A stretch of DNA of 26,291 bases from the IMG/VR virus record IMGVR_UViG_3300044655_000029, positions 1 to 26,291 of that record, one strand, 5' to 3'. The notes below the pieces were generated by a model. That model was not told where the DNA came from. It saw only the letters and a program-made list of their open reading frames with translations, and made no database searches. Shown here piece by piece: positions 1 to 26,291 of the stretch (within the stretch, counting starts at the first letter, position 1; every line of letters begins with the position of its first letter). The position numbers and the translations under genes are program-made. The DNA comes from a virus (Duplodnaviria > Caudoviricetes).

Positions 1-1
1 A

Positions 2-3000
2 ATGGGAATCAATATTAAAGGACTTGTTGAAGCGAACAAGGGAGATATTAAGGGAACTGTTGTAGGGTTTGCTAGAGCACTAGATGAACTAGATCCACTT
101 AATCGTGCTCGTGCTATTGAGCAACTGTTTGGTAAATTCCAGTTTGCTCGTTTGTCTACATTGTTCCAGAATGTATCTAAGGATGGAACACAGGCTGCAA
201 GAGCATTCCAGTTAACTGGCGCATCTGTTGAAGAGTTAGCAATTCTATCTGAGCGAGAAATGAAGAAAATCGAAGAGTCTGTCGGCGTTAAATTCCAGGC
301 TGCTCTAGAACAATTCAAGCAAGACATTATGCCATTAGGAAAGGCATTTCTTGAGGCAGTCACGCCAATAGTAAAGTTTTTTGGAAGTTTGTTTGAAAAA
401 TTTAATGGTCTTAGTGATCAAACTAAAAAAGTAATAACCACTATAGTTGGAGTTGTTGCTGGTATAGGACCAGTAGTTCTTATGACATTTGGTCTTTTGG
501 CTAATGGTTTGGCAAACTTAATTAAACTATTTGCAACAATAAGAGGCGGTATTGCAAAGTTAAACGGTCAAACAAATGTTTTGGGTGCAGGATTTAATTA
601 TGTAACACAAGAGCAGTTAGAGCAACAGGCAGCAGGACAAGCGCTACATAATACTCATACAAGATTAACTGAAATATTTAATATTGAAAAAACAGCAGCA
701 ATGCAATTAGCATCTGCATATTCATCTTTGACTTCTCAAATGAGAACTATGGCATCACAAAATCCTGCATTGTTTGCTGGAGGTGTTGGTGGGGCTAAAC
801 GTGCAGTAACAAAGTTGCCACCAATGAAAAAGTATAAAGATGGAATTATTTCTGTGCCAGGTCCAAAGGGTGCAGGAGACGTTGTTCCAGCAATGCTTTC
901 TCCAGGAGAAGCAGTTATACCTACAGAAACTACAGATAAGTATAGAGGTTTGATTACTGCAATGTTCCAGGATAAGGTTCCAGGCTTTATGGCTGGAAGA
1001 CTTCCAGGAGGGCCAGGCAGAGGTATACCACTTTCTGCAGGACCAGAAGCAGTTAGAAGAGCACAGCAAGCAAGAAATAGAAGAAGAGATGATGCTCGTC
1101 AAGGATACAACGAACCACATCCAGAGAGACAGTCAGGCGCTGTTTTTGTTGGCATGCCTAAGTCTGCTAAAGAAGCATCGCAGTCTAGAGAGATAGTAGA
1201 TAAGATAGCAAGGGATGTAAGTACTGGAAAGTATGGAAGTGTTGCTCCTACTGATTTCGGCACATTGCTTCAGCCATTCTCTGGAAGAAGTTTCCCTGTT
1301 AGAGGAGTTGGCGGGGTATACAGAAAGCCTAACGGAAAGATCGTAGTAGTAAAACCAACAATAGATGAAAAGACTGCATTAGCAGAAGTTCGTGCTACTC
1401 AGATTGCTAGAGAAGTTCATGGTTTGGTATCTCCAAAACAAAGTATTAAGACTATGATTGATCCAACAGATCCTTCAGGTCAAAGAAAGTTTATTGTTAT
1501 TGAGTCTCCATATGATCCAAGAATTGCAGCCATGGATGGTAAGTTCTCACAATCTGATATGGTTAAGCAACTTGTTGCATCTACATTAAGAGCAGATAAA
1601 GATTTACAGAAGGCAAACCTATCTGGAAACGTATTGGCTGATGTTGGAACTGCTGGAGTATTCGATAGAGCATCTGGCTTTAGAGATTTCTCTAAGGGAT
1701 TGCCAAGCATGGAGCAGCAAGCGCTTGTTAACTTGCTTGGTGTAAAGGGTGGTGCTAAAAAGTTCTTTGCACAAGAAACATCAGGCCTTGCTTCAAAGAT
1801 GACACCATCACAGTATGATGCTGCTATAAAGGCAGAAATAAATAAATCTATTCCAAGGCTAGAAAGAGTTATAAAGTCTTGGGATTTAACTCCAGACGAG
1901 CAAGTTGTATATAACAACATGCTTGAAAGACTTAGGGCTGGAGCAAAAACAGATTGGTCGCAACTTCATTCTGTTCATGCTCGTGCAGGAAACGGAGTTG
2001 TAAAGGCAATTGAGGGAATAGATCCAAAGGCAACAAATTCAATTGCAGAAGAGCAACTTAGAAAATATCTTCTTCCACCAGGAACACAAGAAAAAACTTT
2101 AATAGAAGAACTAAAGCGAACTGCAAATAATGATTTTATCAGAGAACTAGAAAAGGTTGATCCTCAAAGAAGAGCAGTTATCGAGGCAGCATGGAAGGGT
2201 GGAGTAGCAGCAGTACCACCATCTGGCAGAGAGCAATCTTTCACTTCTCCAAGACAAACACAGTTTATGAATGAACTTAGCAAGATGCACCCAGTCATGG
2301 TAAATGGTGAAACAAGATATATTCATAAGCAAGACCTGGATGCATTTTTAGCAGACCCAGATGGAAGGGCAAAATATTCTAGATCAGCGAAGCAAGTTAC
2401 AGACATGATGCTTTACCGAATGGGAGTTATTCCAAACGATAAGGGCAGACTTGTTTCTGGAGGAAAGTTCCAGGGAAGATTTGCAAGCATTGAACCTTTT
2501 GTAACAGCATTAAGATCAACTGGAAAGCAGGCTGGTGGTGGAAAGGCAAATATATCAAGTATCGTAAAGCCATTTGCCACAAAAGAAATTCAAGAATACA
2601 ATGCAAGAATCGGTAATCCCCTTACAACCAAAACAGGAAGAGCCATGTTGGCTGCTGGATATACTCCAGACGAAGTTAAAAGTTTATTAAAAGAAAATCT
2701 TTCACATATAAAGCAGGAAGTTACAGGTCGCCAAGGCGCACTAAAGATGAAGACTGGCGAGGCATTATATGACGCCAGAATTTTAAACAACTACATGAAT
2801 GCAAAGAGAAGAGGGTTAAACATACTCGATATCTTTAATAAAGACAATGTACTTGGTTTATCAGAAATAGAAAAGAAAGAATATAGAAAAGCAGCAGAAT
2901 TTATGGCAAGAGGAAGCCATCCAAAAAATCCACAAGAAAGAATGTTGCTTGCAAAAGCAGCGCAATTAGATCAGCGTGTTATTGATTATCAGGCAAATGG

Positions 3001-6000
3001 TGGCAAGGTAGCAGCCAAGTATTTACCAGCAGATTTAAGAACACCAAAAATGCTACTCACCTTATTATCAGATCCTCAATTCCAGCCAGGTAAAGTAATG
3101 AACCTTGCTGCTCAAAGAGCAGATGAAGTACTTGTTGCTGCAAAGAGAGGTGAAAGCCTTGTTAACAGAGATTTGACTGCTAAAGAAAAGATTAATAGTA
3201 GTAACAGTTCTCCTCTACCAAAGGGTACAGTTGGCGTTGATGAAAGGGGAAGACGTACTTCAGATAACGTAGTTGTTAGAAGGAGACAGGGTCAAGCAGT
3301 TGCAACTGCATCACAGGCTGCAAGACTTAGAATGCTTCCTGGTTTTGAAGATGGAGATAAAACTTTACGTGGCGGAGGAATAACTAATCCTACTAGACGT
3401 CAAGGAGAGATAGCAGTAGATCTACGTAGAAAAGGTTTTAGCCAGGCAGAAATTGATAAGACATTAAGAAAACTTGCAAAGAAAGAAATAAGGGCTAAGG
3501 AAGTAGCAGTTGCTGCAACAGAAAAAGCAGCAAGAACTGAAGCAGCAAGAGAAAAAGAACAAGCAGCAAATAACAAAAAACAAACTGAGGCTGCAAGAAA
3601 AAGGTTCCTTGAGAATGAGCGTAGAGCACAATTAAATGCTGCACAGGCAAAATACTACGATGCTGCAGTAAAAGAAGATCAACAGAGAACATTAAAACAA
3701 TTAAAGCAAACACAAAAAGCAGACAGAGAACAGCGCAAACAAGTTCGCCAAGAAAAGGTAAATAGATTCTCTGGCGGAGCCTCAATGGCCCTTGGAACTG
3801 CAGGTATGGGCCTAATGATGGCTGGACAACAAACTGCTGGTATGGTAGCAATGGGTGCATCCGCAGTTGCTGGAATGGCTCCTATGCTTGCTGGAATGGG
3901 TCCTATAGGATGGGCTATAACTGGGCTAACTGCTGCTGCTGGAGCATTCTATTTAACTGACAAGGCAGCAAAGAAAGCAGCAGAGTCACAGTCTAAATAT
4001 GTTGATTCAATTACAGCAACTACAGAAAAGATGTCAAAGATAGGGCAACTAACCAACACTGTAGGTGCTAGTGAGATTTATGCAAGAAAAAGACAGACTG
4101 GCGCTGCAGATAGATATACTACTGGTTTTGAAAGAGGTAAGCAACAGTTCGGTGAAACATTTATAGATAGCGAAGTTGGTAAATCAATATTTGAATCATT
4201 TAAGCAAAACATGACTGCTGGCGGAATAGATGCAGTTAAGGCAATATCAGTTCAATTAGCAGCATACGTTTCTGATGGAGTTATGACAGCAGAGCAAGCG
4301 CATAGCGTTGCTTCACAAATCGGTATTGAATTAAACAATACAACATTGATATCACAGATTAGTGGACAACTACTAGACCTAATCGGTCCAGAGGGACAAG
4401 ACTTAACTAAAGATCCACTAAATGTTAGAATGAATTTAATTACAGAGCAAAGAAAGTTATCTACTGGAGCAGTTAAAAATCTATCTAAAGATATAGATGA
4501 GAATTTGCCAAGCACTGAAGAGTCTGTTATAGAAAGATACAAAAGATTATTTAACCCTAAAAAGGCATGGGAAGAAGCAATAAAGCCTATCTTTACTGAA
4601 ACTGATGCAGAAAAGTCAGCAGCACAAATAGCAGCACTTAATGCTAATAACTTAGAGTTAAACTTAGCACAACAAGACTCTTTATCAAAACAATATGATA
4701 CTGAAATTAAAAAATTACAAGCACAAAAGGCAGCAACTTCGGATAAGGCAAAACAAAAAAAGATAGATGATGAAATACTAAATCTTGAAGGTCGTAAGCA
4801 GTCAGGACTTGATGCATTAAGAGAAAAGAATAGGGCAATTTTAAATGATCAGATTAAAGCATTTAGAACTGCATCTAAAAATGATCAAACCAAAGACGCA
4901 TTTTTTAATTCATTAAACTCTCAAATAGCCACTAAGTATGAAGGAAATCCTTTTGCAAAAACATTTTTACAAAAATCTGCAGACAAGTTACAATCTGAAG
5001 AACTAGAAGTAAAGATTAAAACAGTTGTTGCATCAGGGGATCTTGGTGTTGAATCTGGAGAAAGACTCATTGATATTTTTACAGGTAAGGATGGCACCGT
5101 TGATGAAAAAGGATTAGAGAGAAACTTAACATTAGCATTAACAAAACATGATCCAGGAGCAGTTACACAGTTAATTAATAGCCTCGGTGGAGTAGAGGAT
5201 GAAGTAGCAAAAAAGATTCTTGTAGATGTTCTAAAAAAGAATCCACAAGAGTTTGAAAAGACTGCCTCTGCAATAGCACTGGTTCAAAAGATGGCTGGCA
5301 AGGAAGTAAACATTGAAGCATTCTTCTCTTCAGAAAATGCACTAGCAAACCTTGAAGATTTACAAAAGGCATTAGAAGAAGTAGAAAAGATAGATACTCC
5401 AATAACAAAAACAGCATTAATGGAAATGAAAAATATTGGCGGGGTTAGTTTAGAAGGACTTATTCCTCTATGGGGTCAATGGGAAAATCTTCCAGACGAA
5501 ACTAAGAAAACTATTATTCAAGAATACATTACAGTACAAAAAACAATTACCGAAGGTGATGTCAGTGCTGAAATTGCACGAAGGGTTGCAACTGCTGATA
5601 AAAAGAAACAGGGATGGATTAATGCTTATTACAATACTCCAGCAGGAAGAGAGAAAGTAAGAAATGAACTTGCTGGACAAAGAACAATGCAGGCAGTAAA
5701 TCAAGATATTGCAAATGCTGAGGCTGGAAAGTTTAAGGATGACGAAAAGGGTGGTGGCAGTAAAGCAGATCCATTTGCAGACGTAATGAAGCGTCTTAAG
5801 AATGTTAGAAATGCTGCTCTAAATGCTGCTGGTGGATTTAAAGAATTACAAAAGGCAATGGAGGCAGCAGGCAGCAAGTCTGTCGCAAATAAGTTTGTTG
5901 GTATAGAACAGCAACTAATGAACAAGGGTTATAGCCAAGACTTTATTGACTTTATTACACAACTAGACCCAGAAGAGCAGAAGAAGTTTGGAAGCACTGC

Positions 6001-8791
6001 AACAAAGGCTGGAAGCAAAAAGTATAAAGAGTTTGATTACGAAACTGGAAAGATGAAAACCAGAACTCAGAAATACAAAAAGGGAGATTTTGTATTAACT
6101 GATGAAGGAAACGCAATGCGCCAAGGAATGGATAAGGCCGTTGTAGGAGAGTTCCAGATAGAGCAACAGAATGTACTTAAGAACATAGACGAACAAAATA
6201 AAGCATATGCAAAATTAAAGGCTGCTGGTCTATCTAATTTAGAAATAGAAAAGGCTATGGAGAATCAAGCATACGTTACAGCCATAGCAACTGGACAAAT
6301 AACAGCACAAGAATTAAAGACAAATAATGCTTTAACTAAGCAGGCTGTGCTAAGAGAACAGATAAATGGTTTGGTAGACAAAACAAAAACTAACCAAACA
6401 AGAATTGACGCTTTAAAGAAAACCCCAGAACTAATTAATTTCTTGTCTACTTTTAAAACATTAGATGCAGAAGGCAAGGAAGTTGCACTTTCTATTACGT
6501 CTATATATGATGCAATTCAGGACCCAGAAGATTTAATTAAGATGGTTGCAATAATGGATGCAATTAAGGCTGGAACATATGATGCCAAGGATGGCATGAA
6601 GCAATTATTTGATTTAATTAGTAGTTCAGAATCCGCAAAGGATCTTGAGAAAAATCTATTAACACCTCTTGAAAAGTTCCAAAAGGCTTATGATGCAGCA
6701 ATGAAGATTTTTGATGCATATAAGACAATGGACGAATATACATTAAAGGCTCCAAAAAATTCAGTAACACCAGAACTTGGTGGAAAAACATTTAAGCAAT
6801 TGAGTAGGACAAAGACAGAGAGCGACGAAGCCCTATCAGCAATGAATGCTGAACTTGCAATTTATGAACATCAGATTTCTATGATTCGTGACGAGATTGC
6901 AAAGATTGAATCTGATATTGAAAACATGGATGTTAAGGATTTAAACCTTACCGTAGATGGACAGAAGGTCACTGGTAAATTAAAGTATGTCCTAGAAGAT
7001 CTTAAGGAAAAGATTGATGACTGGGAAAGAGAAATAGAGATGAAGTATGAGCGTCCTATAAAGACGCTTCAGGATGAATCTAATGTCCTTTCTCATGACC
7101 TAGAGGTTATGGATTATCAAGCAGGAAAGATTAATGAAAAGTATGACAAGCAAGCAGAAGCATTAGCCGAAGTTCAAAAGGTTAACGACTCTATTATTCG
7201 TCAACAAGAACAGCAACTTGATTTGGCTGATGCCTTAACTCAAGGAGATATTTCTGCTGCTGCCCGTGCTGCCCAAGCAATGAGGGCTGGCAATGCAGCA
7301 GATTTTGCTACTGGCCAAAGCGATGCATTACAGCAATCAAGAGAAAATGAAATCAATGGATTAACAAATGCTAATGGATTAACAAGAGAACAAATTGAAG
7401 AAAGACGTTGGGAAATATCACAACAAATATATGCACTTGAAAATGATCCAGCCAGACTTGCTCTTCAAAAGAGTATACAAGAAACTAAAGATGCTATATA
7501 TGCGATAGAAGAGGCAAGAGAAGTTAAACTGCTTGCTATTAGAGCACACGAAGAAAGAATTTATCAAATTGAAAAAGATAAGATTCTTCCATTGCAAACT
7601 GCAATTAATCTTGAAACAACTAAAAATCTTGCGCTAGAATATCAGTTAGTCGTTCTTGGAAACATTATTGCTGCAAATGATAGAAATAGAGTAGTTGCTG
7701 GACAAACAAGAGATCAATGGGAAGAGATGCTAACCCAGATGACCTTGATGGACGAAAAACTTAGAAAAGAATTAAAAGATGCATTGGATAGTTTTAACGC
7801 TCAGAGCGGTACAGCAGAAGATATCTGGACCAGAATTAAGGCTCTTTATGATGCTATTAAAGATAAGACTGTAACTATTACAGTTAATTACGTGACTAAC
7901 GGTTCTACAGGAGATGGCTCTACTGGTGATGGATCTACAGGAGATGGCTCAACTGGCGATGGATCAACTGGCGATGGTTCAACAGGAGATGGTTCAACAG
8001 GAGATGGTTCTACAGGCGATGGTTCTACAGGCAATGGTTCAACAGGTAAAGGCTCTACAGGAGGCTCTAAGGGTGGTTCTGTCGTAACTGGCGGGGTATC
8101 TGGAGTAAACCCAGCAACAACACCAGTACCATATAAGTCTACATATAAGAGCATTACTGATCCAACAGCCAAGGCACATGTAAAGAGTCTTGAAGCAAAT
8201 ATATCATCCAACATTGCACAAAACTCTACATTGTTTGCACAAAAGGTTGCAGAAAAGAAAGCAACACAAAATGCTGGATCTGTTGCTGGACAGCATCTTG
8301 CAGATCTTAATAGAATGGGAAATGCTGCTGCCCTTGCTAAAAAATACGATGGGCCTGAAGCAGCAAAGAAAAAGGCAGAGGCAGTACAAAAAGCAAATGC
8401 AGATAAAGCAGCAAAAGCAAAGGCTGCAGCAGATCTTAAGAAGTTCGGAGGCAACGCAGCAGCAGCAAATTCATTTGCTAACTGGGGAAAGAGTAAGTCT
8501 GCTGGTGGCATAATAAAGAGATTTGCTAAGGGCGGACCAATAATAGGAACAGATGTTATTCCATCAATGCTTACTCCAGGTGAATTTGTTATGAGCAGAT
8601 ATGCTGTCGAATCATTTGGTCTTGATAATATGAAGGCTATAAATAATGGAGAGTCAGTTGGCGACTCAGTGTATAATTATAGTATTAATGTAAACGTTAA
8701 GTCTGATGCAAACCCAGACGAAATCGCACAGGCTGTAATGACAAACATACAGAGAGTAAATTCTCAGAAGTTAAGGAGCGTTAGAATATAA
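2..8791 (+). CDS. Giant tail tape measure protein (5'-truncated by window edge) with internal cargo domains
   Basis: 2929-aa ORF open from the window edge. The N-terminal part looks like the end of a PhageMin_Tail-type TMP domain (RARAIEQLFGKFQFARLSTLF). It has hydrophobic segments at ~431-541 and ~3767-3960, long Ala/Glu/Lys/Gln coiled-coil regions, and a typical TMP C-terminus (FAKGG..GTDVIPSMLTPGEFVM..YNYSINVNV). It lies directly upstream of tail-tip genes. The ATG at 2 is probably internal. Confidence 0.92.
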   Translation: MGINIKGLVEANKGDIKGTVVGFARALDELDPLNRARAIEQLFGKFQFARLSTLFQNVSKDGTQAARAFQLTGASVEELAILSEREMKKIEESVGVKFQAALEQFKQDIMPLGKAFLEAVTPIVKFFGSLFEKFNGLSDQTKKVITTIVGVVAGIGPVVLMTFGLLANGLANLIKLFATIRGGIAKLNGQTNVLGAGFNYVTQEQLEQQAAGQALHNTHTRLTEIFNIEKTAAMQLASAYSSLTSQMRTMASQNPALFAGGVGGAKRAVTKLPPMKKYKDGIISVPGPKGAGDVVPAMLSPGEAVIPTETTDKYRGLITAMFQDKVPGFMAGRLPGGPGRGIPLSAGPEAVRRAQQARNRRRDDARQGYNEPHPERQSGAVFVGMPKSAKEASQSREIVDKIARDVSTGKYGSVAPTDFGTLLQPFSGRSFPVRGVGGVYRKPNGKIVVVKPTIDEKTALAEVRATQIAREVHGLVSPKQSIKTMIDPTDPSGQRKFIVIESPYDPRIAAMDGKFSQSDMVKQLVASTLRADKDLQKANLSGNVLADVGTAGVFDRASGFRDFSKGLPSMEQQALVNLLGVKGGAKKFFAQETSGLASKMTPSQYDAAIKAEINKSIPRLERVIKSWDLTPDEQVVYNNMLERLRAGAKTDWSQLHSVHARAGNGVVKAIEGIDPKATNSIAEEQLRKYLLPPGTQEKTLIEELKRTANNDFIRELEKVDPQRRAVIEAAWKGGVAAVPPSGREQSFTSPRQTQFMNELSKMHPVMVNGETRYIHKQDLDAFLADPDGRAKYSRSAKQVTDMMLYRMGVIPNDKGRLVSGGKFQGRFASIEPFVTALRSTGKQAGGGKANISSIVKPFATKEIQEYNARIGNPLTTKTGRAMLAAGYTPDEVKSLLKENLSHIKQEVTGRQGALKMKTGEALYDARILNNYMNAKRRGLNILDIFNKDNVLGLSEIEKKEYRKAAEFMARGSHPKNPQERMLLAKAAQLDQRVIDYQANGGKVAAKYLPADLRTPKMLLTLLSDPQFQPGKVMNLAAQRADEVLVAAKRGESLVNRDLTAKEKINSSNSSPLPKGTVGVDERGRRTSDNVVVRRRQGQAVATASQAARLRMLPGFEDGDKTLRGGGITNPTRRQGEIAVDLRRKGFSQAEIDKTLRKLAKKEIRAKEVAVAATEKAARTEAAREKEQAANNKKQTEAARKRFLENERRAQLNAAQAKYYDAAVKEDQQRTLKQLKQTQKADREQRKQVRQEKVNRFSGGASMALGTAGMGLMMAGQQTAGMVAMGASAVAGMAPMLAGMGPIGWAITGLTAAAGAFYLTDKAAKKAAESQSKYVDSITATTEKMSKIGQLTNTVGASEIYARKRQTGAADRYTTGFERGKQQFGETFIDSEVGKSIFESFKQNMTAGGIDAVKAISVQLAAYVSDGVMTAEQAHSVASQIGIELNNTTLISQISGQLLDLIGPEGQDLTKDPLNVRMNLITEQRKLSTGAVKNLSKDIDENLPSTEESVIERYKRLFNPKKAWEEAIKPIFTETDAEKSAAQIAALNANNLELNLAQQDSLSKQYDTEIKKLQAQKAATSDKAKQKKIDDEILNLEGRKQSGLDALREKNRAILNDQIKAFRTASKNDQTKDAFFNSLNSQIATKYEGNPFAKTFLQKSADKLQSEELEVKIKTVVASGDLGVESGERLIDIFTGKDGTVDEKGLERNLTLALTKHDPGAVTQLINSLGGVEDEVAKKILVDVLKKNPQEFEKTASAIALVQKMAGKEVNIEAFFSSENALANLEDLQKALEEVEKIDTPITKTALMEMKNIGGVSLEGLIPLWGQWENLPDETKKTIIQEYITVQKTITEGDVSAEIARRVATADKKKQGWINAYYNTPAGREKVRNELAGQRTMQAVNQDIANAEAGKFKDDEKGGGSKADPFADVMKRLKNVRNAALNAAGGFKELQKAMEAAGSKSVANKFVGIEQQLMNKGYSQDFIDFITQLDPEEQKKFGSTATKAGSKKYKEFDYETGKMKTRTQKYKKGDFVLTDEGNAMRQGMDKAVVGEFQIEQQNVLKNIDEQNKAYAKLKAAGLSNLEIEKAMENQAYVTAIATGQITAQELKTNNALTKQAVLREQINGLVDKTKTNQTRIDALKKTPELINFLSTFKTLDAEGKEVALSITSIYDAIQDPEDLIKMVAIMDAIKAGTYDAKDGMKQLFDLISSSESAKDLEKNLLTPLEKFQKAYDAAMKIFDAYKTMDEYTLKAPKNSVTPELGGKTFKQLSRTKTESDEALSAMNAELAIYEHQISMIRDEIAKIESDIENMDVKDLNLTVDGQKVTGKLKYVLEDLKEKIDDWEREIEMKYERPIKTLQDESNVLSHDLEVMDYQAGKINEKYDKQAEALAEVQKVNDSIIRQQEQQLDLADALTQGDISAAARAAQAMRAGNAADFATGQSDALQQSRENEINGLTNANGLTREQIEERRWEISQQIYALENDPARLALQKSIQETKDAIYAIEEAREVKLLAIRAHEERIYQIEKDKILPLQTAINLETTKNLALEYQLVVLGNIIAANDRNRVVAGQTRDQWEEMLTQMTLMDEKLRKELKDALDSFNAQSGTAEDIWTRIKALYDAIKDKTVTITVNYVTNGSTGDGSTGDGSTGDGSTGDGSTGDGSTGDGSTGDGSTGDGSTGNGSTGKGSTGGSKGGSVVTGGVSGVNPATTPVPYKSTYKSITDPTAKAHVKSLEANISSNIAQNSTLFAQKVAEKKATQNAGSVAGQHLADLNRMGNAAALAKKYDGPEAAKKKAEAVQKANADKAAKAKAAADLKKFGGNAAAANSFANWGKSKSAGGIIKRFAKGGPIIGTDVIPSMLTPGEFVMSRYAVESFGLDNMKAINNGESVGDSVYNYSINVNVKSDANPDEIAQAVMTNIQRVNSQKLRSVRI
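1220..1990 (+). other. HipA/PI3-PI4-kinase-like domain embedded in the TMP
   Basis: Kinase motifs in the expected order: Gly-rich GVGGVY (1304-1321), beta3 VVVK (K at 1352), alphaC AE (E at 1385), catalytic loop D-x-D-L-Q-K-A-N (1595-1618), Mg-binding DVG (1640-1648), then a helical C-lobe ending ERL. Boundaries are approximate. Confidence 0.7.
7901..8065 (+). repeat. 11 tandem 15-bp units encoding (GSTGD)x8, GSTGN, GSTGK, GSTGG
   Basis: Units read directly, e.g. GGTTCTACAGGAGAT, GGCTCTACTGGTGAT, GGATCTACAGGAGAT, GGCTCAACTGGCGAT. Variation is almost entirely at third codon positions. Confidence 0.97.
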
Positions 8792-14233: not shown

Positions 14234-14235
14234 CT

Positions 14236-15820: not shown

Positions 15821-15824
15821 AACT

Positions 15825-17484: not shown

Positions 17485-18703
17485 TACAGAATCTAAACTA
17501 ATCTCAGCCGTTCTTCAAGATAAGCAAGCGCATGTTTTGTTACAGGCAAATGTAGAGAACATCCTTACTACACATGTAGATGTGTGGCAGTTTATTAGAA
17601 AATATTATGAGTCAAATGGCACAGTGCCTCCTACAGATTTGGTTGTTGAAAAGTTTAGGGACTTTGATCCAGTTAGTGGCGTTGGTTCCACAAAGCATCA
17701 TCTTGAAGAATTACAGTCAGAGTATTTAACAAATAGTTTAAAAGATATTATTAGATCTGCTGCTACTGATGTACAGGGAGGTTTGGGATTAGATGCCCTT
17801 GAGTCTCTTATTACTAAAACAGCAGAACTTAGAAAAAATACAGCAGCAATTCGTGATATTGATGTTACAGATTTAGATTCTGCGGTTGCATATTTTGAAA
17901 ACCTAAAGAAGCAACAGGAGTCTGGAGCGCTTGGCATTAAAACAGGTTTGCCAGGTTTTGACAATTACTTACCTTCAGGAATTATGCCAGGGCAACTAGG
18001 AGTCTTCCTTGCATACCCAGGTATCGGAAAGTCTTGGTTGTCTCTCTATTTCGCTGTGCAGGCTTGGAAGCAGGGTCGTAGCCCTATGATTATCAGCCTT
18101 GAAATGTCTGAGGTCGAAGTTCGTAACCGTGTGTTTGCAATTATGGGAGAAGGCCTTTGGTCACATAGAAAGTTGAGTTCTGGTAATATTGAAATGGACA
18201 TGCTTAAGTCTTGGCATACAAAAACAGTTCAGGGTAGACCAGAGTTCCACATCATATCAAACGACACTGGTGGAGATATTAATCCAATGGTGCTTCGTGG
18301 AAAGATTGATCAGTACAAGCCAGACTTTGTAATTGTTGACTATTTACAATTGATGTCACCAAACCAAAAATCTGACAACGAAACAGTTCGAATGAAAAAC
18401 CTTTCTCGTGAATTAAAACTCATGGCTATTTCAGAGGAGGTTCCAATTATTGCTATCTCTTCTGCTACGCCTGACGATGTTACTAAACTTGAGACAGTCC
18501 CAACCCTTGGTCAAACAGCATGGTCAAGACAGATTGCCTACGATGCTGACTGGGTTCTAGCATTAGGTCGAGGTGCTAATAGCGACATTATTGAGTGTGT
18601 ATTTAGAAAAAACCGTAATGGTTTTATGGGAGAGTTCCTAGTTCAGGCTGATTTTGACAAGGGATACTACAGGTACAAGGATTATGAAGATAAGTCAGTA
18701 TAA
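17477..18703 (+). CDS. dnaB: DnaB-like replicative helicase (SF4)
   Basis: GTG start after SD AAGGAG; Walker A AYPGIGKS, SLEMS, Walker B VIVDYLQL, IAYDAD, Arg-finger KNRNG. Confidence 0.95.
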   Translation: MNNTESKLISAVLQDKQAHVLLQANVENILTTHVDVWQFIRKYYESNGTVPPTDLVVEKFRDFDPVSGVGSTKHHLEELQSEYLTNSLKDIIRSAATDVQGGLGLDALESLITKTAELRKNTAAIRDIDVTDLDSAVAYFENLKKQQESGALGIKTGLPGFDNYLPSGIMPGQLGVFLAYPGIGKSWLSLYFAVQAWKQGRSPMIISLEMSEVEVRNRVFAIMGEGLWSHRKLSSGNIEMDMLKSWHTKTVQGRPEFHIISNDTGGDINPMVLRGKIDQYKPDFVIVDYLQLMSPNQKSDNETVRMKNLSRELKLMAISEEVPIIAISSATPDDVTKLETVPTLGQTAWSRQIAYDADWVLALGRGANSDIIECVFRKNRNGFMGEFLVQADFDKGYYRYKDYEDKSV

Positions 18704-18711: not shown

Positions 18712-19038
18712 ATGGAGACATTTCAGCACAAGCCCATAAAAAGGTTTGCTTTGGACGGGGTCATTAATGATGACGCTGCCATATACAGATTACAGCAGGA
18801 GTATATCAGGCTACTGGTATCAGAGATGCGACTATCTGGCTATTCTCCAAGAATTGACATCGATCCACAATTTACATTATCATATAACGAAAACAAAAAT
18901 TACTTTGAATTTACATTAAGCGTATACGGAATATATATAGGGAGAAAGAAATCAGAATGGATACTAGGGATAGACGGAACCAAGCCAGTATATACACAGC
19001 AAATCAAATCAAAAGAGTACTCGCAGGATCTGGCGTAA
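18712..19038 (+). CDS. Hypothetical protein between helicase and primase
   Basis: 108 aa ORF filling the gap with protein-like composition; overlaps the primase by 82 nt. Confidence 0.7.
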   Translation: METFQHKPIKRFALDGVINDDAAIYRLQQEYIRLLVSEMRLSGYSPRIDIDPQFTLSYNENKNYFEFTLSVYGIYIGRKKSEWILGIDGTKPVYTQQIKSKEYSQDLA

Positions 19039-19901
19039 CTGTAGAAAAAGAAGCAGAGTCTGAGTACATAGTATTTTGCCCATTCCATTCGAATCATAGA
19101 ACCCCTGCTGGAGAAATAAATAAATATACTGGATTGTTCTTTTGTTTTTCATGCAGTAAAACAGCAGACCTAATAGAACTAGTAATGCATTTTTCCAATA
19201 GAACATATTTTGAGTCTGTTAGATTTATCAAAAGTAAAGAAGTTGAGACAAACATACTGTCTGAAGTTAATAATAAGTTAATTGAAAAAGAAGAGTGGAC
19301 AGAGTTTGACATGTCTGTTGTCAACAGACTTCATGAGCAGGCGCTTAACTCAGAAAGAGCAAAAGAGTATTTTGTTAAAAGAAAGATTACTAAAGAGTCT
19401 GTTGTAAAGTTTAAACTTGGTTATTCTGAAAACCAAGATATGATCTCTATCCCAGTACAAAATAATGATGGACTGTGTGTAGGGTTTGTTGGAAGATCTG
19501 TTGAGGGTAAAGACTTTAAGAATACATCCAAACTTCCAAAGTCTAAATTATTATTTAATTTAAATAGAGTAAAGACTGCATCTAAGGTTTATGTAGTGGA
19601 GTCATCATTTGATGCCATTAGGTTAGACCAGGTTGGCTTTCCAGCCGTTGCAACGTTGGGTGCTAACGTATCATCCAAACAAATAGATTTGCTTCAAAAA
19701 TACTTTAGTGATATAATTATTATTGCTGATAATGATGAGGCAGGCGGTAACATGAAAGAAAAGATAGTCGAAAGACTAAATGGAAATGTTACTGTGATTA
19801 ACTTAGATAAACAATATAAAGATATAGGCGACATGGACGACAAGTCAATAAAGGAATTGGAATACCAATTTGACAAATCAATATTGTCTATGCTACAATA
19901 G
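18957..19901 (+). CDS. dnaG: DnaG-like DNA primase (CHC2 Zn finger + TOPRIM)
   Basis: CPFH...CFSC zinc finger, GFVGR, VVESSFDA, ATLG, DNDEAG, KDIGD. Confidence 0.93.
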   Translation: MDTRDRRNQASIYTANQIKRVLAGSGVTVEKEAESEYIVFCPFHSNHRTPAGEINKYTGLFFCFSCSKTADLIELVMHFSNRTYFESVRFIKSKEVETNILSEVNNKLIEKEEWTEFDMSVVNRLHEQALNSERAKEYFVKRKITKESVVKFKLGYSENQDMISIPVQNNDGLCVGFVGRSVEGKDFKNTSKLPKSKLLFNLNRVKTASKVYVVESSFDAIRLDQVGFPAVATLGANVSSKQIDLLQKYFSDIIIIADNDEAGGNMKEKIVERLNGNVTVINLDKQYKDIGDMDDKSIKELEYQFDKSILSMLQ

Positions 19902-19919: not shown

Positions 19920-20579
19920 ATGAATAAAATAGTAGGACTAAAGAATATAAATGCTTTACTAGATAAGAAGACAGATGAAAACGGTCCAAAGGTTCGCTGG
20001 CTAAAGTTAGCCGATGGACAGGCAGTAAAGATTAGATTTATTGAAGAGTTGGACGAAGACTCTGCAAACTATAACGAAAAGCGTGGACTTGCATTCGTTG
20101 TTAAGGAACACACAAATCCAAAGGATTACAAGCGCAAGGCTGTAGACACACTAGAAACAGAAGGTCGTGACTGGGCTGAAGAGATGTACCGCAAGGATCC
20201 AAAGGGAAATAGTGGATGGCGTGGCCGTCTTCGTTTCTATTGCAACGTTCTTGTCGACGACGGTATCGAAGCACCATATGTTGCTATCTGGTCAATGGGT
20301 ATCAGCAAGCAATCATCATTTAATACAATCCGTGAGTATGCACTTGAAACAGGAAGCATCTCAAACGTTGTTTGGAAGTTAAAGCGTAATGGTCAGGGAA
20401 CTGAAACATCATACACTTTGATTCCTTCTGCTCCAGATAAGGAGCCTTTTAACTGGGAAGGTGTTGAACCATATGCTCTAGAGAAGGCATTGCGTCGAGT
20501 TCCATATGCGGAGCAAGAAGCATTCTATCTAGGTTTTGATTCACCTTCATCTACATCAGCGACGAATATCGACTGGTAG
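19920..20579 (+). CDS. Single-stranded DNA-binding protein (gp32-like/actinophage type)
   Basis: 219 aa between primase and polymerase; pattern KIRF...R.Y.NV...KLKRNGQGTETSY.L.P; low-complexity tail ending in acidic/aromatic IDW. Confidence 0.75.
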   Translation: MNKIVGLKNINALLDKKTDENGPKVRWLKLADGQAVKIRFIEELDEDSANYNEKRGLAFVVKEHTNPKDYKRKAVDTLETEGRDWAEEMYRKDPKGNSGWRGRLRFYCNVLVDDGIEAPYVAIWSMGISKQSSFNTIREYALETGSISNVVWKLKRNGQGTETSYTLIPSAPDKEPFNWEGVEPYALEKALRRVPYAEQEAFYLGFDSPSSTSATNIDW

Positions 20580-20582: not shown

Positions 20583-23500
20583 ATGAACTACGTACCACTA
20601 CACTTACATACTCACTTTTCATTGTTCGACGGTATTGGGTTGCCGTCTGAATATGTAGATCGTGCTACAAAATTGGGTATGCCTGCAATTGCTATTACAG
20701 ACCATGGCTCCCTTTCTGGCCACAGAGAAATGTATCGTATTGCTAAAGCAAGTGGTATAAAGCCTATTCTTGGCATAGAAGGTTATATGTGTGAAGATCG
20801 CTTTGATCAAAGAGATAAAAGCGAGAGAGCCGATCAACTAGATATGGTTTATAACCATATAATACTTCTAGCCAAGAATAAGGTAGGTTTAGAAAATTTA
20901 AACAAATTAAATGAAATTGCATGGACAGAAGGATATTACAAAAAGCCTAGAATAGATTTTGAAGTTCTTGCAAAATACAAAGAAGGAATTATTGTTTCCT
21001 CTGCATGTCCTAGCGGAATTATCGCTAAGTCAATTGAACTTGGTGAACTTGGCATGGCAAAGAAATATATTAAATGGTTCAAAGAACAATTTGGCGATGA
21101 TTACTATCTTGAAGTAATGCCACATAATGATGACTCAATAAATAGAAATATTTTATTGTTAGCCGATGAATTTAAAGTTAAGCCAATTGTTACTCCAGAC
21201 TGTCATCACGTAGATCCATCTCAGAAAGAAATTCAAGAATTAAAACTTATCTTGAATACATACTCTAATAAGATTCAGAAGGATGCTACATACGAAAAGT
21301 CTAAAAAGCAAGGGGACTTAATGAGGCGTCTGGATTACCTATATGGCGCAGATAGACAAATGTCATTTAATAAGTTTGATATTCATTTATTATCTTATGA
21401 AGAGATTCAGGCTGCCATGGAGAAGCAGGCAATCTGGAGAACTGACATTTATGAAAATACAATCGACCTTGCTAACAAAATTGAAGATTATGATATTCAG
21501 GATAACCTGAACCTTCTTCCAGTTCAGTATAAAAATCCAGACAAGCAATTAAAAGAATTGGCTATGGCTGGTTTGGCAGAAAAAGGTCTTGACACAAACC
21601 AAGAATATCTTGATAGACTTGAAGAAGAGTTAACTGTAATTCAAGATAAAAAGTTTGGTCCATACTTCCTTGTTGTTCAAAGCATGATCTCTTGGGCAAA
21701 GAAGGAAAAGATTATGGTTGGGCCAGGTCGTGGATCATCTGCTGGTTCTTTACTTTGTTATGCACTGGGCATCACTGACATCGATCCATTAAAGCATGGA
21801 CTACTATTCTTCCGATTTATTAATCCAGAGCGTAATGACTTTCCTGATATTGATACAGATATTCAAGATACTCGTCGTGACGAAGTAAAAGATTATCTTG
21901 TTAGGCAGTATAAGCATGTTGCATCTATCGCAACATTTTTAGAATTTAAAGATAAAGGTGTTGTACGAGATGTTGCTCGTGCATTGAATATTCCATTAGT
22001 AGATGTTAATAAAGTTTTGAAGTTAGTAGATACTTGGGATGAGTACTGCACATCAAAAACTACTGCATGGTTTAGAGAGAAATATCCAGAGGTGGAGCAA
22101 TATGGAGAACAACTTCGTGGTCGCATTAGAGGTACTGGCATACACGCTGCTGGTGTTGTCACTAGCAAAAATCCTATTTTTAGGTACGCACCGATGGAGA
22201 CACGTAATTCTCCTGGTTCCGATGAGCGTATTCCTGTTGTGGCAGTTGATATGGAAGAGGCTGAAAAAATTGGTCTTATCAAGATCGACGCACTTGGACT
22301 TAAGACCTTAAGTGTTATTAATGACACAGTAAATATAATTAAGGAAAGAGAAGGAGTTGACATAGACTTATTGAATATAGATATGTCAGATCCAAAGGTT
22401 TATGAGATGCTTTCACAAGGATACACAAAGGGAATCTTTCAGTGTGAAGCAACGCCATATACAAACCTACTTGTTAAAATGGGTGTCAAAAATCTAGAAG
22501 AGTTATCTGCCTCAAACGCTTTGGTTCGTCCAGGTGCTATGAATACTATTGGCAAGGACTATATCGAAAGAAAGCACGGCAGACAGGCAGTAAATTATTT
22601 ACACCAAACTATGAAGCAGTTCACAGAAGAAACATATGGGTGTATCCTATACCAAGAGCAGGTCATGCAGGCTTGCGTTCAACTTGGAGGGATGTCATGG
22701 TCTGAAGCGGACAAGGTTCGTAAGATCATTGGTAAAAAGAAAGATGCTAGAGAATTTGATGTGTTTCGTGATCGTTTCGTTGACGGTGCTAGTAAGTTTA
22801 TTAGTCCTAATCAGGCTCGTGATCTATGGCATGACTTTGAGGCGCATGCGGGTTATTCGTTCAACAAGTCTCATGCGGTTGCTTACTCTACGCTCTCGTA
22901 TTGGACGGCATGGCTAAAGTATTATTATCCACTAGAGTTTATGTACTCATTATTAAAAAATGAAAAGGACAAAGATGCGAGAACTGAATATCTTATTGAA
23001 GCGAAAAGAATGGGTATTAGCATTAAATTACCTCACATTAACGATTCGGATATTGATTTTAAAATTGAGGGTAAGGGTATTAGGTTTGGACTCTCGGCGA
23101 TCAAGTTTATCTCTGATAAGATTGCAGAACGATATATATCGGCACGACCTTTTAAGTCTTTCGAGGAAGTTAAAACCTTTACATTTACGAAAGGTAATGG
23201 AGTCAACAGCAGAGCACTTGAAGCGTTAAGGCTGATTGGAGCAGCAACATTCCCTGATAATCCAAGAAATGATGATGAGTTACGAGAACACCTTTATGAA
23301 TATTTGGGGTTGCCAGAATTTACACAAACAGTTCCATCACACTATCATGCATTTATAAATTCAGTAGAAGACTTTGAGGAAAAGGGTTCTTTCATTCTTA
23401 TGGGAATGGTTAAGGGTATTAAGCGTGGTAAAGGGTGGTCTCGTGTTGAGATATTGGATAAGACTGGAAGCATAGGAGTATTTGATGAAGAACAAACTAC

Positions 23501-23861
23501 AATTGAGGCTGGACGAAGTTATATTGCACTCTGTACTGATAACAGAATTGTTAGTGCTGTTCCTGTGGACGAACTAAAGGGATCTGATGCAGCGCTGATT
23601 AAGTTTTTAAATTATCGAATGCTTCCATATAAAGATGATGAGTTATTTGTTGTATCGTTTAAACCAAGAATAACAAAGGCAGGTAAAAAAATGGCGTCTC
23701 TTACTCTAGCAGATACTTCCAGAGAGTTGCATTCTGTGACAGTATTCCCTACAGCATTTGCTAAGGCATACATGAAAATAGAAGAAGGCCACGCATACAA
23801 GTTTGAATTTGGCAAAACCAAAGATGGTACCGTAATATTGGAGGATGTAAATGTCGGTTAG
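20583..23861 (+). CDS. dnaE: DNA polymerase III alpha subunit (family C, DnaE-like)
   Basis: PHP domain (HLHTHFS, TDHG, GIEGY, SACPSG, PDCHH), GPGRGSSAGS, catalytic PDIDTD, HAAGVV, KIDALGL, YQEQVM, YSFNKSHA, HhH and C-terminal OB folds. Confidence 0.97.
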   Translation: MNYVPLHLHTHFSLFDGIGLPSEYVDRATKLGMPAIAITDHGSLSGHREMYRIAKASGIKPILGIEGYMCEDRFDQRDKSERADQLDMVYNHIILLAKNKVGLENLNKLNEIAWTEGYYKKPRIDFEVLAKYKEGIIVSSACPSGIIAKSIELGELGMAKKYIKWFKEQFGDDYYLEVMPHNDDSINRNILLLADEFKVKPIVTPDCHHVDPSQKEIQELKLILNTYSNKIQKDATYEKSKKQGDLMRRLDYLYGADRQMSFNKFDIHLLSYEEIQAAMEKQAIWRTDIYENTIDLANKIEDYDIQDNLNLLPVQYKNPDKQLKELAMAGLAEKGLDTNQEYLDRLEEELTVIQDKKFGPYFLVVQSMISWAKKEKIMVGPGRGSSAGSLLCYALGITDIDPLKHGLLFFRFINPERNDFPDIDTDIQDTRRDEVKDYLVRQYKHVASIATFLEFKDKGVVRDVARALNIPLVDVNKVLKLVDTWDEYCTSKTTAWFREKYPEVEQYGEQLRGRIRGTGIHAAGVVTSKNPIFRYAPMETRNSPGSDERIPVVAVDMEEAEKIGLIKIDALGLKTLSVINDTVNIIKEREGVDIDLLNIDMSDPKVYEMLSQGYTKGIFQCEATPYTNLLVKMGVKNLEELSASNALVRPGAMNTIGKDYIERKHGRQAVNYLHQTMKQFTEETYGCILYQEQVMQACVQLGGMSWSEADKVRKIIGKKKDAREFDVFRDRFVDGASKFISPNQARDLWHDFEAHAGYSFNKSHAVAYSTLSYWTAWLKYYYPLEFMYSLLKNEKDKDARTEYLIEAKRMGISIKLPHINDSDIDFKIEGKGIRFGLSAIKFISDKIAERYISARPFKSFEEVKTFTFTKGNGVNSRALEALRLIGAATFPDNPRNDDELREHLYEYLGLPEFTQTVPSHYHAFINSVEDFEEKGSFILMGMVKGIKRGKGWSRVEILDKTGSIGVFDEEQTTIEAGRSYIALCTDNRIVSAVPVDELKGSDAALIKFLNYRMLPYKDDELFVVSFKPRITKAGKKMASLTLADTSRELHSVTVFPTAFAKAYMKIEEGHAYKFEFGKTKDGTVILEDVNVG

Positions 23862-24864
23862 CATTGAAGATGTATTAGCACAGTTAAACCCTAAGTTAAG
23901 AAAGAGCATATTGGTAGGAGATGAAGTCCCTAAGACTGAATATGCAGCAACACCTAGTCACGGGCTTAATCGTGCCCTCAATGGCGGACTTCCATATGGA
24001 AGACAGGTATTGATATGGGGATCAAAGTCATCTGCTAAATCATCTTTATGCTTACAGACAATTGCATTAGCGCAACAAGAAGGAAAGGTCTGTGCATGGA
24101 TTGATGCCGAAATGTCCTATGATAAAGCGTGGGCAGAGAAGTTAGGTGTAGACACATCAAAACTAATTGTTTCTCAGGCAAGAACAATTAATGAAATGGT
24201 TGATGTCGGTGTAAATCTAATGGAGGCTGGAGTAGATTTAATTGTTGTAGATTCAATTACGTCTCTTCTACCTGCTATTTATTTTGAAAAAGATTCTGAC
24301 GAACTAAAGCAATTAGAAAACACAAAACAAATTGGTGCCGAGTCTCGTGACTTTAGTAATGCATGGAAGATGATTAACTACGCTAACAACAAGGTCAAGC
24401 CAACACTGTTTATATTAATTAGTCAATCACGAAATAATATTAATGCAATGTATACAAGCCAACAGCCAACTGGTGGACAGGCTACTAAGTTTTATTCCTC
24501 TACTGTTGTTAAACTATTTTCATCAGAATCAGATAACCAAGCATTGAAGGGAAAGATTTATGTTGGTGACAAGGCTATTGAAGAAAAGGTTGGTAGAAAA
24601 GTTAGATGGGAACTCCAGTTTTCAAAAACTAGTGCTGCTTTCCAGTCTGGTGAGTATGATTTCTATTTTAGAGGCGATAATTTGGGCATTGACTCTATCG
24701 CTGATCTTGTTGATACTGCTGAATCTTTGGGTATAGTTGAAAGAACTGGAGCATGGTATGTTCTTCCAGATGGGTCAAAAGTTCAAGGTAGAGATGGATT
24801 TGTTAACAGAGTAAGAGAGGATCTTGATCTACAAGAAATGATTAAGGCTAAGATCAGTGGATAA
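23851..24864 (+). CDS. recA: RecA/UvsX-like recombinase
   Basis: GGLPYGR, variant Walker A GSKSSAKSS, WIDAE, Walker B IVVDS, ISQ.R, TGGQATKFYS, GAWY, QGRD. Confidence 0.93.
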   Translation: MSVSIEDVLAQLNPKLRKSILVGDEVPKTEYAATPSHGLNRALNGGLPYGRQVLIWGSKSSAKSSLCLQTIALAQQEGKVCAWIDAEMSYDKAWAEKLGVDTSKLIVSQARTINEMVDVGVNLMEAGVDLIVVDSITSLLPAIYFEKDSDELKQLENTKQIGAESRDFSNAWKMINYANNKVKPTLFILISQSRNNINAMYTSQQPTGGQATKFYSSTVVKLFSSESDNQALKGKIYVGDKAIEEKVGRKVRWELQFSKTSAAFQSGEYDFYFRGDNLGIDSIADLVDTAESLGIVERTGAWYVLPDGSKVQGRDGFVNRVREDLDLQEMIKAKISG

Positions 24865-25033
24865 GTACATGATAGTTGAAGGAAAATTTCCTTGCAAAAC
24901 TTGTAAAAAAGAAGTAAAGACTATCAGAGTATATACCTCAACTGGTATGGCATCTTGGATGTGCTCTGAAAAACATTTATCAGAGGTACATTTATTTAAA
25001 GTTGGATATAAGAAAGTAAAAAGAGATGAGTGA
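24857..25033 (+). CDS. Small Zn-ribbon protein (58 aa), absent from the ORF track
   Basis: Translated by hand from GTG 24857: MDKYMIVEGKFPCKTCKKEVKTIRVYTSTGMASWMCSEKHLSEVHLFKVGYKKVKRDE*. It has CxxC-x19-CxxxH and fills the recA-resolvase gap, overlapping both neighbours. Confidence 0.75.
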   Translation: MDKYMIVEGKFPCKTCKKEVKTIRVYTSTGMASWMCSEKHLSEVHLFKVGYKKVKRDE

Positions 25034-25316
25034 GAGAGGCGAGAGTAAAAGAATAGGTGCCAAGCAGCACAAAAATTCTGGTAGAAATACCAAGAAAGGC
25101 GATGCTACTTGGGAAAATTTTACTGTAGATTTTAAAGAGAACTCAAAATCTTTTACATTAAACCAGGATGTGTGGGCTAAGGCAGTCACAGATGCTATAC
25201 GAAATGGCAACGACCCAGCAATTGTTGTGGTACTTGGCGAGGGTAACAAGAAGGTAAGACTTGCTATAATAGAGTTAGAACTACTAGAACAGATGGTGAA
25301 TAATGGAACAGAGTAA
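25026..25316 (+). CDS. Holliday junction resolvase-like PD-(D/E)xK nuclease (Hjc type)
   Basis: 96 aa: N-terminal E, SG....GD, VDFK, and C-terminal P.IVV; located downstream of recA. Confidence 0.75.
   Translation: MSERGESKRIGAKQHKNSGRNTKKGDATWENFTVDFKENSKSFTLNQDVWAKAVTDAIRNGNDPAIVVVLGEGNKKVRLAIIELELLEQMVNNGTE
25262..25270 (+). promoter_or_regulatory. Extended -10 TGCTATAAT within the resolvase gene
   Basis: Perfect TGn-TATAAT about 30 nt upstream of ATG 25303. Confidence 0.4.
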
Positions 25317-25608
25317 TACAACGCTTGATATGGTCAATGGTTTGTCAGAAATAGCAGAGTATATGGAGGACGAGGAGTTAACCTCTGCCCTAACATTTAT
25401 TGCTAAGATAATTATAAAGCCAGATATCCCCATGAGCGTGGCTACTGTAGAGATAGTTAGACTACAGGCAATTGCAGCCAAGATGGCATTCAGGGCTACA
25501 TGGATGGCTAATGTGGATAAGTCAAATAGGGGAAAGAAAAATATTTACTATACAGCAGCAGAGTCAATAAACAGTCTTGTGTCTGCTCTTAAATACATAA
25601 TTAAGTGA
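25303..25608 (+). CDS. Hypothetical all-helical protein
   Basis: 101 aa, overlaps the upstream gene, protein-like composition. Confidence 0.7.
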   Translation: MEQSNTTLDMVNGLSEIAEYMEDEELTSALTFIAKIIIKPDIPMSVATVEIVRLQAIAAKMAFRATWMANVDKSNRGKKNIYYTAAESINSLVSALKYIIK

Positions 25609-25612
25609 TATC

Positions 25613-25637
25613 TGCTATAATTAATACAAACAAAGGA
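25613..25637 (+). promoter_or_regulatory. Extended -10 promoter TGCTATAAT plus SD AAGGA
   Basis: Intergenic TGCTATAAT (25613-25621); AAGGA at 25633-25637; ATG 25643. Confidence 0.6.
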
Positions 25638-25642
25638 TAACA

Positions 25643-26291
25643 ATGACTAAAAATTTATTGAAGCAAGTAATGATAAAAAATCCAGACAAAACCTATGAGT
25701 CTAAAGAAGACACAAGTTTTATTGACGGAATAATAGAAAAAATAGAATCTGGTTACATGACAAAAACAAAGCCAAGATTTAGTAAGAAGACAAATTTTTC
25801 AGCATCTGCTTTAACTTACGGCGCAGGTGAGTGTCCAAGATACTGGTACCTTGCATTTGATGGGCAGGTTCATTATGATAATTCTGACGCATTCGGTGTT
25901 GCTAATAGAACTAACGGAACCCTTGGTCACGAAAGAATTCAGGAAGCCATTCAGGCTTCAGGACTACTTGATGAAGATATGGAATTCGATCCCATTGAAA
26001 GAAAATATAATAAGCAAACTCATCCAGCAATGGAGTTTAGAGTTAAATTAGACGACCCACCTTTTGACGGGTATGGAGATGTCATGCTTAATCATAATGG
26101 TGAAAGAATCATTGGTGAAATCAAAACAATAATGAATGAAGGTTTTGAATACAAAAAGAATAGCAGAAAGCCTAAGATGGGTCATCTTATGCAATTGCTA
26201 ATCTATATGAAGGTTTGGAAAGTCGGCAAGGGTGTAATGATTTATGAAAATAAAAATAATCATGAGTTGTTGACTTTACCAGTAGTAGTAA
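25643..26291 (+). CDS. Cas4-like/RecB-family PD-(D/E)xK exonuclease (3'-truncated; not in ORF track)
   Basis: Translated by hand: MTKNLLKQ...FSASAL...CPRYWY...GTLGHE...EFRV...GYGD...EIKT...HLMQLLIYM; open to the window end. Confidence 0.88.
   Translation, partial: MTKNLLKQVMIKNPDKTYESKEDTSFIDGIIEKIESGYMTKTKPRFSKKTNFSASALTYGAGECPRYWYLAFDGQVHYDNSDAFGVANRTNGTLGHERIQEAIQASGLLDEDMEFDPIERKYNKQTHPAMEFRVKLDDPPFDGYGDVMLNHNGERIIGEIKTIMNEGFEYKKNSRKPKMGHLMQLLIYMKVWKVGKGVMIYENKNNHELLTLPVVV

Follow-up and report, generated by a model that had tools for sequence, protein, structure and literature searches.

Lineage-wide loss of AGCT in actinophages related to BillNye, and a putative phage-borne DHH-fold restriction endonuclease as its possible cause

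The virus record IMGVR_UViG_3300044655_000029 (Duplodnaviria; Caudoviricetes) was analyzed over positions 1 to 26,291, and this whole stretch of 26,291 nucleotides is referred to here as the window. It is a 26-kb fragment with a tape measure gene, tail genes and genes encoding DnaB, a primase, a single-strand DNA-binding protein, DnaE, RecA and a Cas4-like protein (Table 1), and its G+C content is 36.9%. The closest annotated phages are the Streptomyces-infecting BillNye and its relatives, in which the gene order matches. The gene whiB, given as the usual marker of actinophages in the accessible text of PMC6802176, was identified in the relatives G001 and G003 (PF02467, above cut-off), while the window's fragment ends before that region. 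The window belongs to an actinophage lineage that bears whiB and has BillNye as a relative. In this study we focused on the tetranucleotide AGCT, which is missing from the window and from most of its lineage, and on an orphan gene of 255 amino acids (aa) in several relatives, whose product is a candidate for the cause of this loss.

A preliminary description, made by reading the letters of the window, had reported that AGCT is completely absent across 26 kb, that each AGC is followed by A, C or G and that several dozen to about 100 sites would be expected. These statements were borne out by exact counting, which rules out that the zero is an artefact of manual scanning. No AGCT occurs in the window, where 85 sites are expected by base composition and 98 by a maximal-order Markov model (both strands); with a z of -14.1 it is the most depleted 4-mer by a wide margin, and the 365 AGC trinucleotides are followed by A, C, G and T in 252, 60, 53 and 0 cases, respectively. 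The palindromes listed in the description as present were all recovered (GATC 92, GTAC 50, TGCA 149, CATG 67, CTAG 59, TCGA 31, GGCC 16 and GCGC 24). Three more words besides AGCT have a count of zero, namely CCGG (0 observed/9 expected), CGCG (0/8) and GCSGC (0/6).

Codon contexts were counted over 18 coding sequences. After an A-ending codon, alanine is written GCA 153, GCC 21, GCG 17 and GCT 0 times (n = 191), whereas after other codons GCT is the top alanine codon (219/485). Leucine behind NAG is TTA or TTG in 35/35 cases, and serine ahead of a T-starting codon is never AGC (0/106), which is used in 61 of 491 cases elsewhere. Codon-pair avoidance had also been described beforehand, and in the main it is borne out; the limitation of Glu-Leu and Lys-Leu to two named pairs each is not, as GAA CTA, GAA TTA and AAA TTA are used too, none of which creates AGCT. 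Judged by codon contexts and one-mismatch neighbours, AGCT was lost through synonymous change with the amino acids kept.

The comparison with related phages that had been suggested earlier was then made at the lineage level. Among 80 loci anchored on the window RecA, 67 lack AGCT and 13 contain 11-59 sites; the latter fall in one 16-member clade that includes three AGCT-free loci, which corresponds to two changes on the tree. Both RecA scans together gave 141 loci, some of them from the same contigs, with no AGCT in 107, 1-6 sites in four and more in 30. Eight AGCT-free relatives span 91-123 kb, with observed/expected counts of 0/357 (G001), 0/344 (G002), 0/333 (G003, with terminal repeats), 0/299 (G004), 0/308 (G009), 0/281 (G034), 0/312 (G036) and 0/271 (G847). 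Other relatives keep 60-100% of expected AGCT (G005 154/216, G006 170/247, G007 106/150, G011 333/541, G012 352/455, G013 440/443 and G014 258/320), and BillNye has 265/303 in 50 kb. In the same 50 kb (positions 25000-74999, L191) this cultured Streptomyces phage contains no GATC, of which 150 would be expected. The AGCT purge is thus lineage-wide in most members and nearly all-or-none, yet it spares other relatives.

The purge also extends to structural RNA. At tRNA positions 8-15, in the D-arm, AGCT-containing genomes have TAGCTCA in 11 of their 21 tRNAs, whereas it occurs in none of the 61 tRNAs of ten genomes that are free or almost free of AGCT; in these ten, the same tRNA types show TAACTCAG, TAGTTCAG, TAGCATAG and the like. 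Most altered D-arms are TAGTTCAG or TAACTCAG, which are C-to-T products, and AGTT is slightly high in AGCT-free genomes (1.12-1.20 of expected, versus 0.92-1.14 in others). These are the marks to be expected if a host methylase modified AG(mC)T and the site decayed by deamination to AGTT or AACT, or was avoided against type IV enzymes. We consider this explanation most unlikely and reject deamination as the main cause from the substitution spectrum, because the chief replacement is GCT to GCA (153/191), which deamination cannot make, with amino acids conserved, and because AGTT reaches only the values given above; the increase of AGCA exceeds that of AGTT. Strict zeros over 1.6 Mb are not expected from mutation pressure, and the avoidance of type IV sites is only weak in the portion of PMC6286503 available to us. 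The synonymous recoding, the lineage-wide zeros, the D-arm changes and the lack of a matching AGTT or AACT excess uphold the earlier view of strong, long-term selection, and loss of AGCT as selection against a nuclease target is well supported.

A candidate for the nuclease is the 255-aa orphan gene, which is common to G001, G002, G003, G009 and G035. G001 is one of the window's nearer relatives (RecA 95%), and in the complete relative G003 the gene is located about 51 kb past the gene that matches the window's right end. All 99 loci fetched with this gene (1.63 Mb) lack AGCT. When loci obtained through neighbouring genes were added and near-duplicates dropped, 106 non-redundant carrier loci (1.60 Mb) remained, and AGCT was found 0 times in the 106 versus 4,339 expected. 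It is the sole strict-zero word in this set among words of 4-6 letters with at least 15 expected occurrences, AGCT-containing words being set aside; CCGG is present in three of these loci and CGCG in 20.

The slot occupied by the gene was sampled via its two neighbouring genes, each scan giving at least 120 loci, 80 with flanks. A total of 155 loci were used and condensed into 94 strain groups, 68 of which had sufficient flank. Among these, 47 carry the gene and are AGCT-free, none carries the gene and contains AGCT, 14 lack the gene and are AGCT-free, and seven lack the gene and contain AGCT (Fisher p = 1.2e-4, uncorrected for kinship). In the AGCT-containing G011-G014 the flanking genes are adjacent and the slot is empty. 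In a quick tree of the neighbour proteins, L342, an AGCT-free carrier on a long branch, groups with AGCT-containing non-carriers; this placement would be an independent gain of the gene. The slot is missing from the contigs of three AGCT-free records (G004, G034 and G036), which therefore say nothing about carriage of the gene and were dropped as non-carriers.

No gene was common to all AGCT-free genomes and missing from all AGCT-containing ones. Other phage open reading frames (ORFs) were considered as the cutter and set aside. The AGCT status was unmatched by a 108-aa ORF in the gap between DnaB and primase, by the SNase, Cas4 and RuvC genes, by Endo VII-like ORFs and by an ORF of 137 aa that matches DUF4143 weakly; the window's resolvase, small ORF and Cas4-like genes occur in AGCT-free and AGCT-containing relatives alike. 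The 255-aa gene itself had no match in 50,697 phage records, nor in annotated phages, plasmids or PDB sequences, and only unnamed clusters were returned for its product by the ESM Atlas.

The AlphaFold2 model of the 255-aa protein has a pLDDT of 92, and in structure searches DHH-family enzymes rank first, though weakly. Foldseek gave DhhP (E 8e-3, its best) and RecJ-Cdc45 (E 4e-2), a viral RecJ was matched at E 3e-3, and the best VIA-align matches were DHH/RecJ/NrnA proteins (Z 7.7, rmsd 4.7, 193 aligned), none reaching a Z of 8. The metal-binding motif set of the DHH superfamily is DxD, D, DHH and D. Residues D20, D22, D62, H76 and D132 are invariant in 45/45 copies and are candidates for these motifs, with GNH at the position of the DHH motif. 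The protein is predicted to have a DHH-phosphoesterase-like fold. Its predicted N-terminal domain, with these candidate motifs, may correspond to that of the DHH superfamily (RecJ, NrnA, GdpP/DhhP and Cdc45); it differs in its small distinct C-terminal domain, in the weakness of the matches (Z <8, E >1e-3) and in having no Pfam DHH match, and we know of no DHH member with double-strand sequence specificity.

The DHH proteins characterised so far act as exonucleases or as phosphodiesterases on small molecules. This would suit a reading in which the 255-aa protein is a phosphoesterase unconnected with the loss of AGCT and some other sequence-specific threat, such as a phage or host protein nicking or modifying AGCT, drove the purge; that no gene tracks AGCT status perfectly across the genomes is also in its favour. 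We regard it as improbable, since the cellular relatives of the protein point to a sequence-specific role. A profile search recovered 344 clusters, mostly proteins of 300-350 aa sharing residues ~10-155; they belong to no Pfam, NCBIfam or PADLOC family where tested, and 22 members searched against PADLOC gave no restriction endonuclease match. One cellular subfamily aligns to residues 9-154 (hhalign 99.8%, E 6e-28). In the best 80 of its 479 metagenomic loci, one conserved N4/N6 methyltransferase (PF01555) adjoins the gene in 72, mostly in convergent orientation, and AGSCT, the half-sites of AGCT with one central base between them, is the most depleted 5-mer in 66 non-redundant cellular loci (396 kb; 101 observed/331 expected), with AGCT at 0.83. 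Both the methylase pairing and the AGSCT depletion speak for a family that acts at specific sequences.

Fusion of the methyltransferase partner to a LexA-like domain is frequent; in L503 (6990-8429, minus strand) and many of L454-L533 the fused part comprises a LexA DNA-binding domain and an S24 peptidase region, which may point to control in response to damage. The Actinomycetota genome G222 has a distant homologue (E 5e-7) with Vsr and a C5 methylase as neighbours; this methylase is putatively M.AluI-like, but its best PADLOC match is DruM2. A defence-like island in G142 (L539, 1310-11000) comprises a large DEAD/MZB helicase, a weak DHH-like ORF (E 6e-4 to 3e-3), a C5 methylase that belongs to one family with that of G222 (best match DruM2), and an HNH nuclease; this island is possibly a Druantia-related system. 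A third genome looked at for the AluI link (G384) is without a DHH-like gene, and G222, G142 and G384 are not clearly AGCT-depleted (observed/expected 1.12, 0.81 and 1.12, respectively).

Phage copies mostly stand alone. A divergent methylase-like ORF (HPPY/HPPF-type), unrelated in detail to the cellular methylase, lies behind the gene in 15/99 loci, which are also AGCT-free, and there is none in G001; a cognate methyltransferase beside the phage copies was accordingly not recognized in the 99 loci. In five phage records no C5 methylase was found, and an N4/N6 methylase was found in one. Where further phage groups have distant members of the family, no loci usable for the same test were found.

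The hosts were assigned at the phylum level only, via whiB; a host search based on PstS gave only full-length matches of 29-32%. As far as the accessible text of PMC6329791 goes, seven Lake Biwa actinobacterial metagenome-assembled genomes (MAGs; 17-77% complete) have no methylated motifs and no methyltransferases, and in the accessible part of bioRxiv 10.1101/655167 these results are read as a lack of restriction systems. The m4C modification of AGCT is reported in Nitrososphaerota and some methanogens, which are not hosts of these phages, in the parts available of PMC10609329 and PMC8919816. The alternative that the hosts possess AluI-like type II restriction, and that the phages escaped it by deleting AGCT, has to be considered against this background. 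The DHH gene would then be a clade passenger, or a weapon affordable only after a host-driven purge.

Several observations speak for host restriction. CCGG and CGCG are lost in nearly all lineage members, carriers of the 255-aa gene or not, and other words are lost in single lineages: TCGA in G006 (0/41) and G036 (0/62), GCGC in G013 (0/47) and nearly so in G014 (1/50), and ACGT in L134 (0/23) and L149 (0/13). GGCC (0/96) and about a dozen further words have been lost from G012 (L431-L435), which retains AGCT; among them are GAGACC 0/20, GCAGGC 0/20, GGCACC 0/22, GGTACC 0/16 and CTCATC 1/26, and this suggests a host rich in restriction systems. Loss of different classic sites (TCGA, GCGC, GGCC) in different lineages is what type II systems of the hosts would be expected to bring about, and virulent phages are known to eliminate type II sites completely, according to the available text of PMC6286503. 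The C5 methylase family is large in Actinomycetota (6,320 matches, one named from a Ca. Nanopelagicales MAG); it is presumably M.AluI-like, with a putative specificity for AGCT. However, the C5 methylase occurs in only 3/401 sampled Actinomycetota genomes, with DruM2 as best PADLOC match, and the seven freshwater actinobacterial MAGs are without methylases. Host restriction also gives no account of why carriers of the gene never have AGCT, nor of the methylase pairs and AGSCT depletion among the cellular relatives. We hold it to be the strongest competing explanation of the purge, though less probable than the one favoured below.

The reading that we favour, with a probability of about 0.5, is that the likely cause of the purge is a putative restriction endonuclease of the phages' own, of DHH fold, directed at AGCT and lacking a methylase. 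The 255-aa protein would derive from a restriction-modification pair, as the endonuclease that cuts AGCT. Made during infection, it would degrade the host chromosome and any AGCT-bearing co-infecting phage, and the carrier would be immune through having no AGCT sites; a genome free of sites would make the methylase dispensable. Non-carriers would stay AGCT-free by sharing host cells with carriers, or through recent loss of the gene, and lineages beyond the nuclease's reach would drift back to 60-100% of expected AGCT. Such a phage nuclease fits hosts reported to be without methylation. We infer that the 255-aa gene is present in the window's own genome as well, and that its product would be expressed, have nuclease activity and AGCT specificity and play this biological role. 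A wider proposal, in which restriction endonucleases of DHH fold, a fold additional to the five known, form a widespread and undescribed family and actinophages captured an AGCT-cutter, dropped its methylase and rewrote genome and tRNAs in order to destroy the DNA of hosts and rival phages, so that non-carrier relatives in the same hosts were forced to be AGCT-free, seems to us somewhat less probable than the narrower one.

A number of points weigh against a phage-borne cause. The window's contig ends before the region of the 255-aa gene, and the protein is without a PADLOC, Pfam, NCBIfam or PHROG family match. The association with AGCT is largely phylogenetic (two changes on both trees), and the strain-group counts overstate it, because both anchor patterns were taken from loci with the gene and related records do not count independently. 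An AGCT-free state does not require the gene: 14/21 non-carrier groups are AGCT-free, as are G847 (99.6 kb, 90% complete), whose slot region is intact and has no match to the gene, and G848, G849, G025 and G030, which span the slot without the gene and are strictly AGCT-free. These five AGCT-free genomes suit host restriction, and to account for AGCT-free non-carriers in general one has to invoke selection on bystanders, loss of the gene in recent times, a different enzyme or restriction by the host; for a test of recent loss, the nearest carriers available for comparison were only 71-76% identical. The 11 AGCT of the carrier G035 are confined to the final 5 kb of its linear contig. The alignment with the cellular subfamily does not extend into the C-terminal part, where specificity would be expected to reside, and the homologues in G794 and L534 have no methylase nearby. 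Since other classic sites were purged, and no phage-encoded candidate enzyme for CCGG, CGCG or the single-lineage words was found, another pressure, probably host restriction, acts on the lineage anyway. Host restriction may have come first, making an orphan nuclease affordable.

Two of these loci show further features. At the contig end of G035 (102600-108124), sequence free of AGCT gives way abruptly to sequence with AGCT, and the end is possibly a misjoin or a recent recombinant. The DHH-family homologue of L534 (4698-5273) is located on a giant-virus MAG contig.

As to the earlier suggestion that an AGCT-directed host defence is the cause and that AGCT loss can serve as a host fingerprint, the selection it assumed stands and the host's ownership of the cutter is in question, as a phage-borne gene never occurs together with AGCT; use as a host fingerprint is doubtful, because a phage gene may be the cause. 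If the favoured reading is true, site avoidance does not in every case identify the host, a new nuclease fold is added to the type II restriction enzymes, which may help to place orphan-fold enzymes such as AluI, and self-immunity can be methylase-free, the phage being shielded by the word content of its genome. That phages of bacteria reported to be without restriction systems look like extreme restriction evaders would be explained as well. A second specificity, for AGSCT, is to be expected in the cellular subfamily, and the candidate protein is small, well predicted and directly testable.

The features of the window are listed in Table 1. Near the C-terminus of the tape measure protein (~7880-8050, plus strand), about ten tandem Gly-Asp-Gly-Ser-Thr repeats were read from the translation, and an insert-like stretch of 300 aa (1202-2101, plus strand) appears enzyme-like by eye and has no Pfam match. 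The relatives G001 and G003 (L082-L093) carry an accessory load of about ten 2OG-Fe(II) oxygenases, a tryptophan halogenase, a catalase-peroxidase, glycosyltransferases, APS kinase, AdoMet decarboxylase and PstS. From the literature on actinophages, the phage may be of freshwater origin.

Table 1. Features of the window and location of the 255-aa gene in a complete relative
Feature	Position	Strand	Evidence or remarks
Tape measure protein (5'-cut, 2929 aa), synonymously AGCT-free	2..8791	+	PHROG 10030, E 5e-29; codon contexts
Tail gene block	8791..16268	+	PHROGs 10359, 9983; order as in BillNye
Minor tail protein	9444-13703	+	Within tail gene block
Tail protein	14236-15393	+	Within tail gene block
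DnaB-like replicative helicase	17477..18703	+	PHROG 19, E 2e-64
DNA primase	18957..19901	+	PHROG 47, E 1e-53
Single-strand DNA-binding protein	19920..20579	+	PHROG 9721, E 8e-40
DnaE-type DNA polymerase	20583..23861	+	Nearest annotated relatives Streptomyces phages, e.g. BillNye, 52-55% identity
RecA/UvsX-like recombinase	23851..24864	+	Anchor for gathering relatives
Holliday-junction resolvase, small conserved ORF, Cas4-like exonuclease (3'-cut)	25026..26290	+	
255-aa orphan gene	G003 83001-83765		

In the literature surveyed, mostly without subscription papers, nothing was found on the AGCT loss of this lineage, on a DHH-fold restriction enzyme or on an AGSCT methylome motif. Members of Stanwilliamsviridae (BillNye and relatives) share the gene order from the tape measure to the Cas4-like gene and the DnaE similarity given in Table 1, but BillNye keeps AGCT and lacks GATC, and no match to the DHH gene was found in the 50,697 phage records. 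Restriction-site avoidance in non-temperate double-stranded DNA phages has been described by Rusinov et al. 2018 (PMC6286503), and as far as the available text goes the present case is alike in that a virulent-looking phage fully loses short palindromic type II sites, several of them together. It differs in the extent of the loss, ~300-350 sites per genome plus the tRNA D-arm, and in that the state tracks a gene of the phage itself and no known host enzyme.

Among orthodox type IIP systems the closest is AluI, which cuts AG^CT and thus has the same target word. The cellular homologues likewise form pairs of nuclease and methylase-like protein, one with Vsr, whereas most phage copies have no adjoining methylase and the fold is DHH-like. 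In the portion available of the survey by Orlowski and Bujnicki (2008, PMC2441816), type II enzymes are assigned to five folds, AluI is placed in an 'unknown superfamily' and DHH is not mentioned.

Viral nucleases offer a parallel in function. T4 has EndoII and EndoIV together with modified cytosine, and chloroviruses have restriction enzymes together with methylases. As proposed here for the 255-aa protein, a virus-encoded nuclease attacks the host DNA and spares its own genome; in contrast to T4 and the chloroviruses, the protection would rest on absence of the target and not on base modification.

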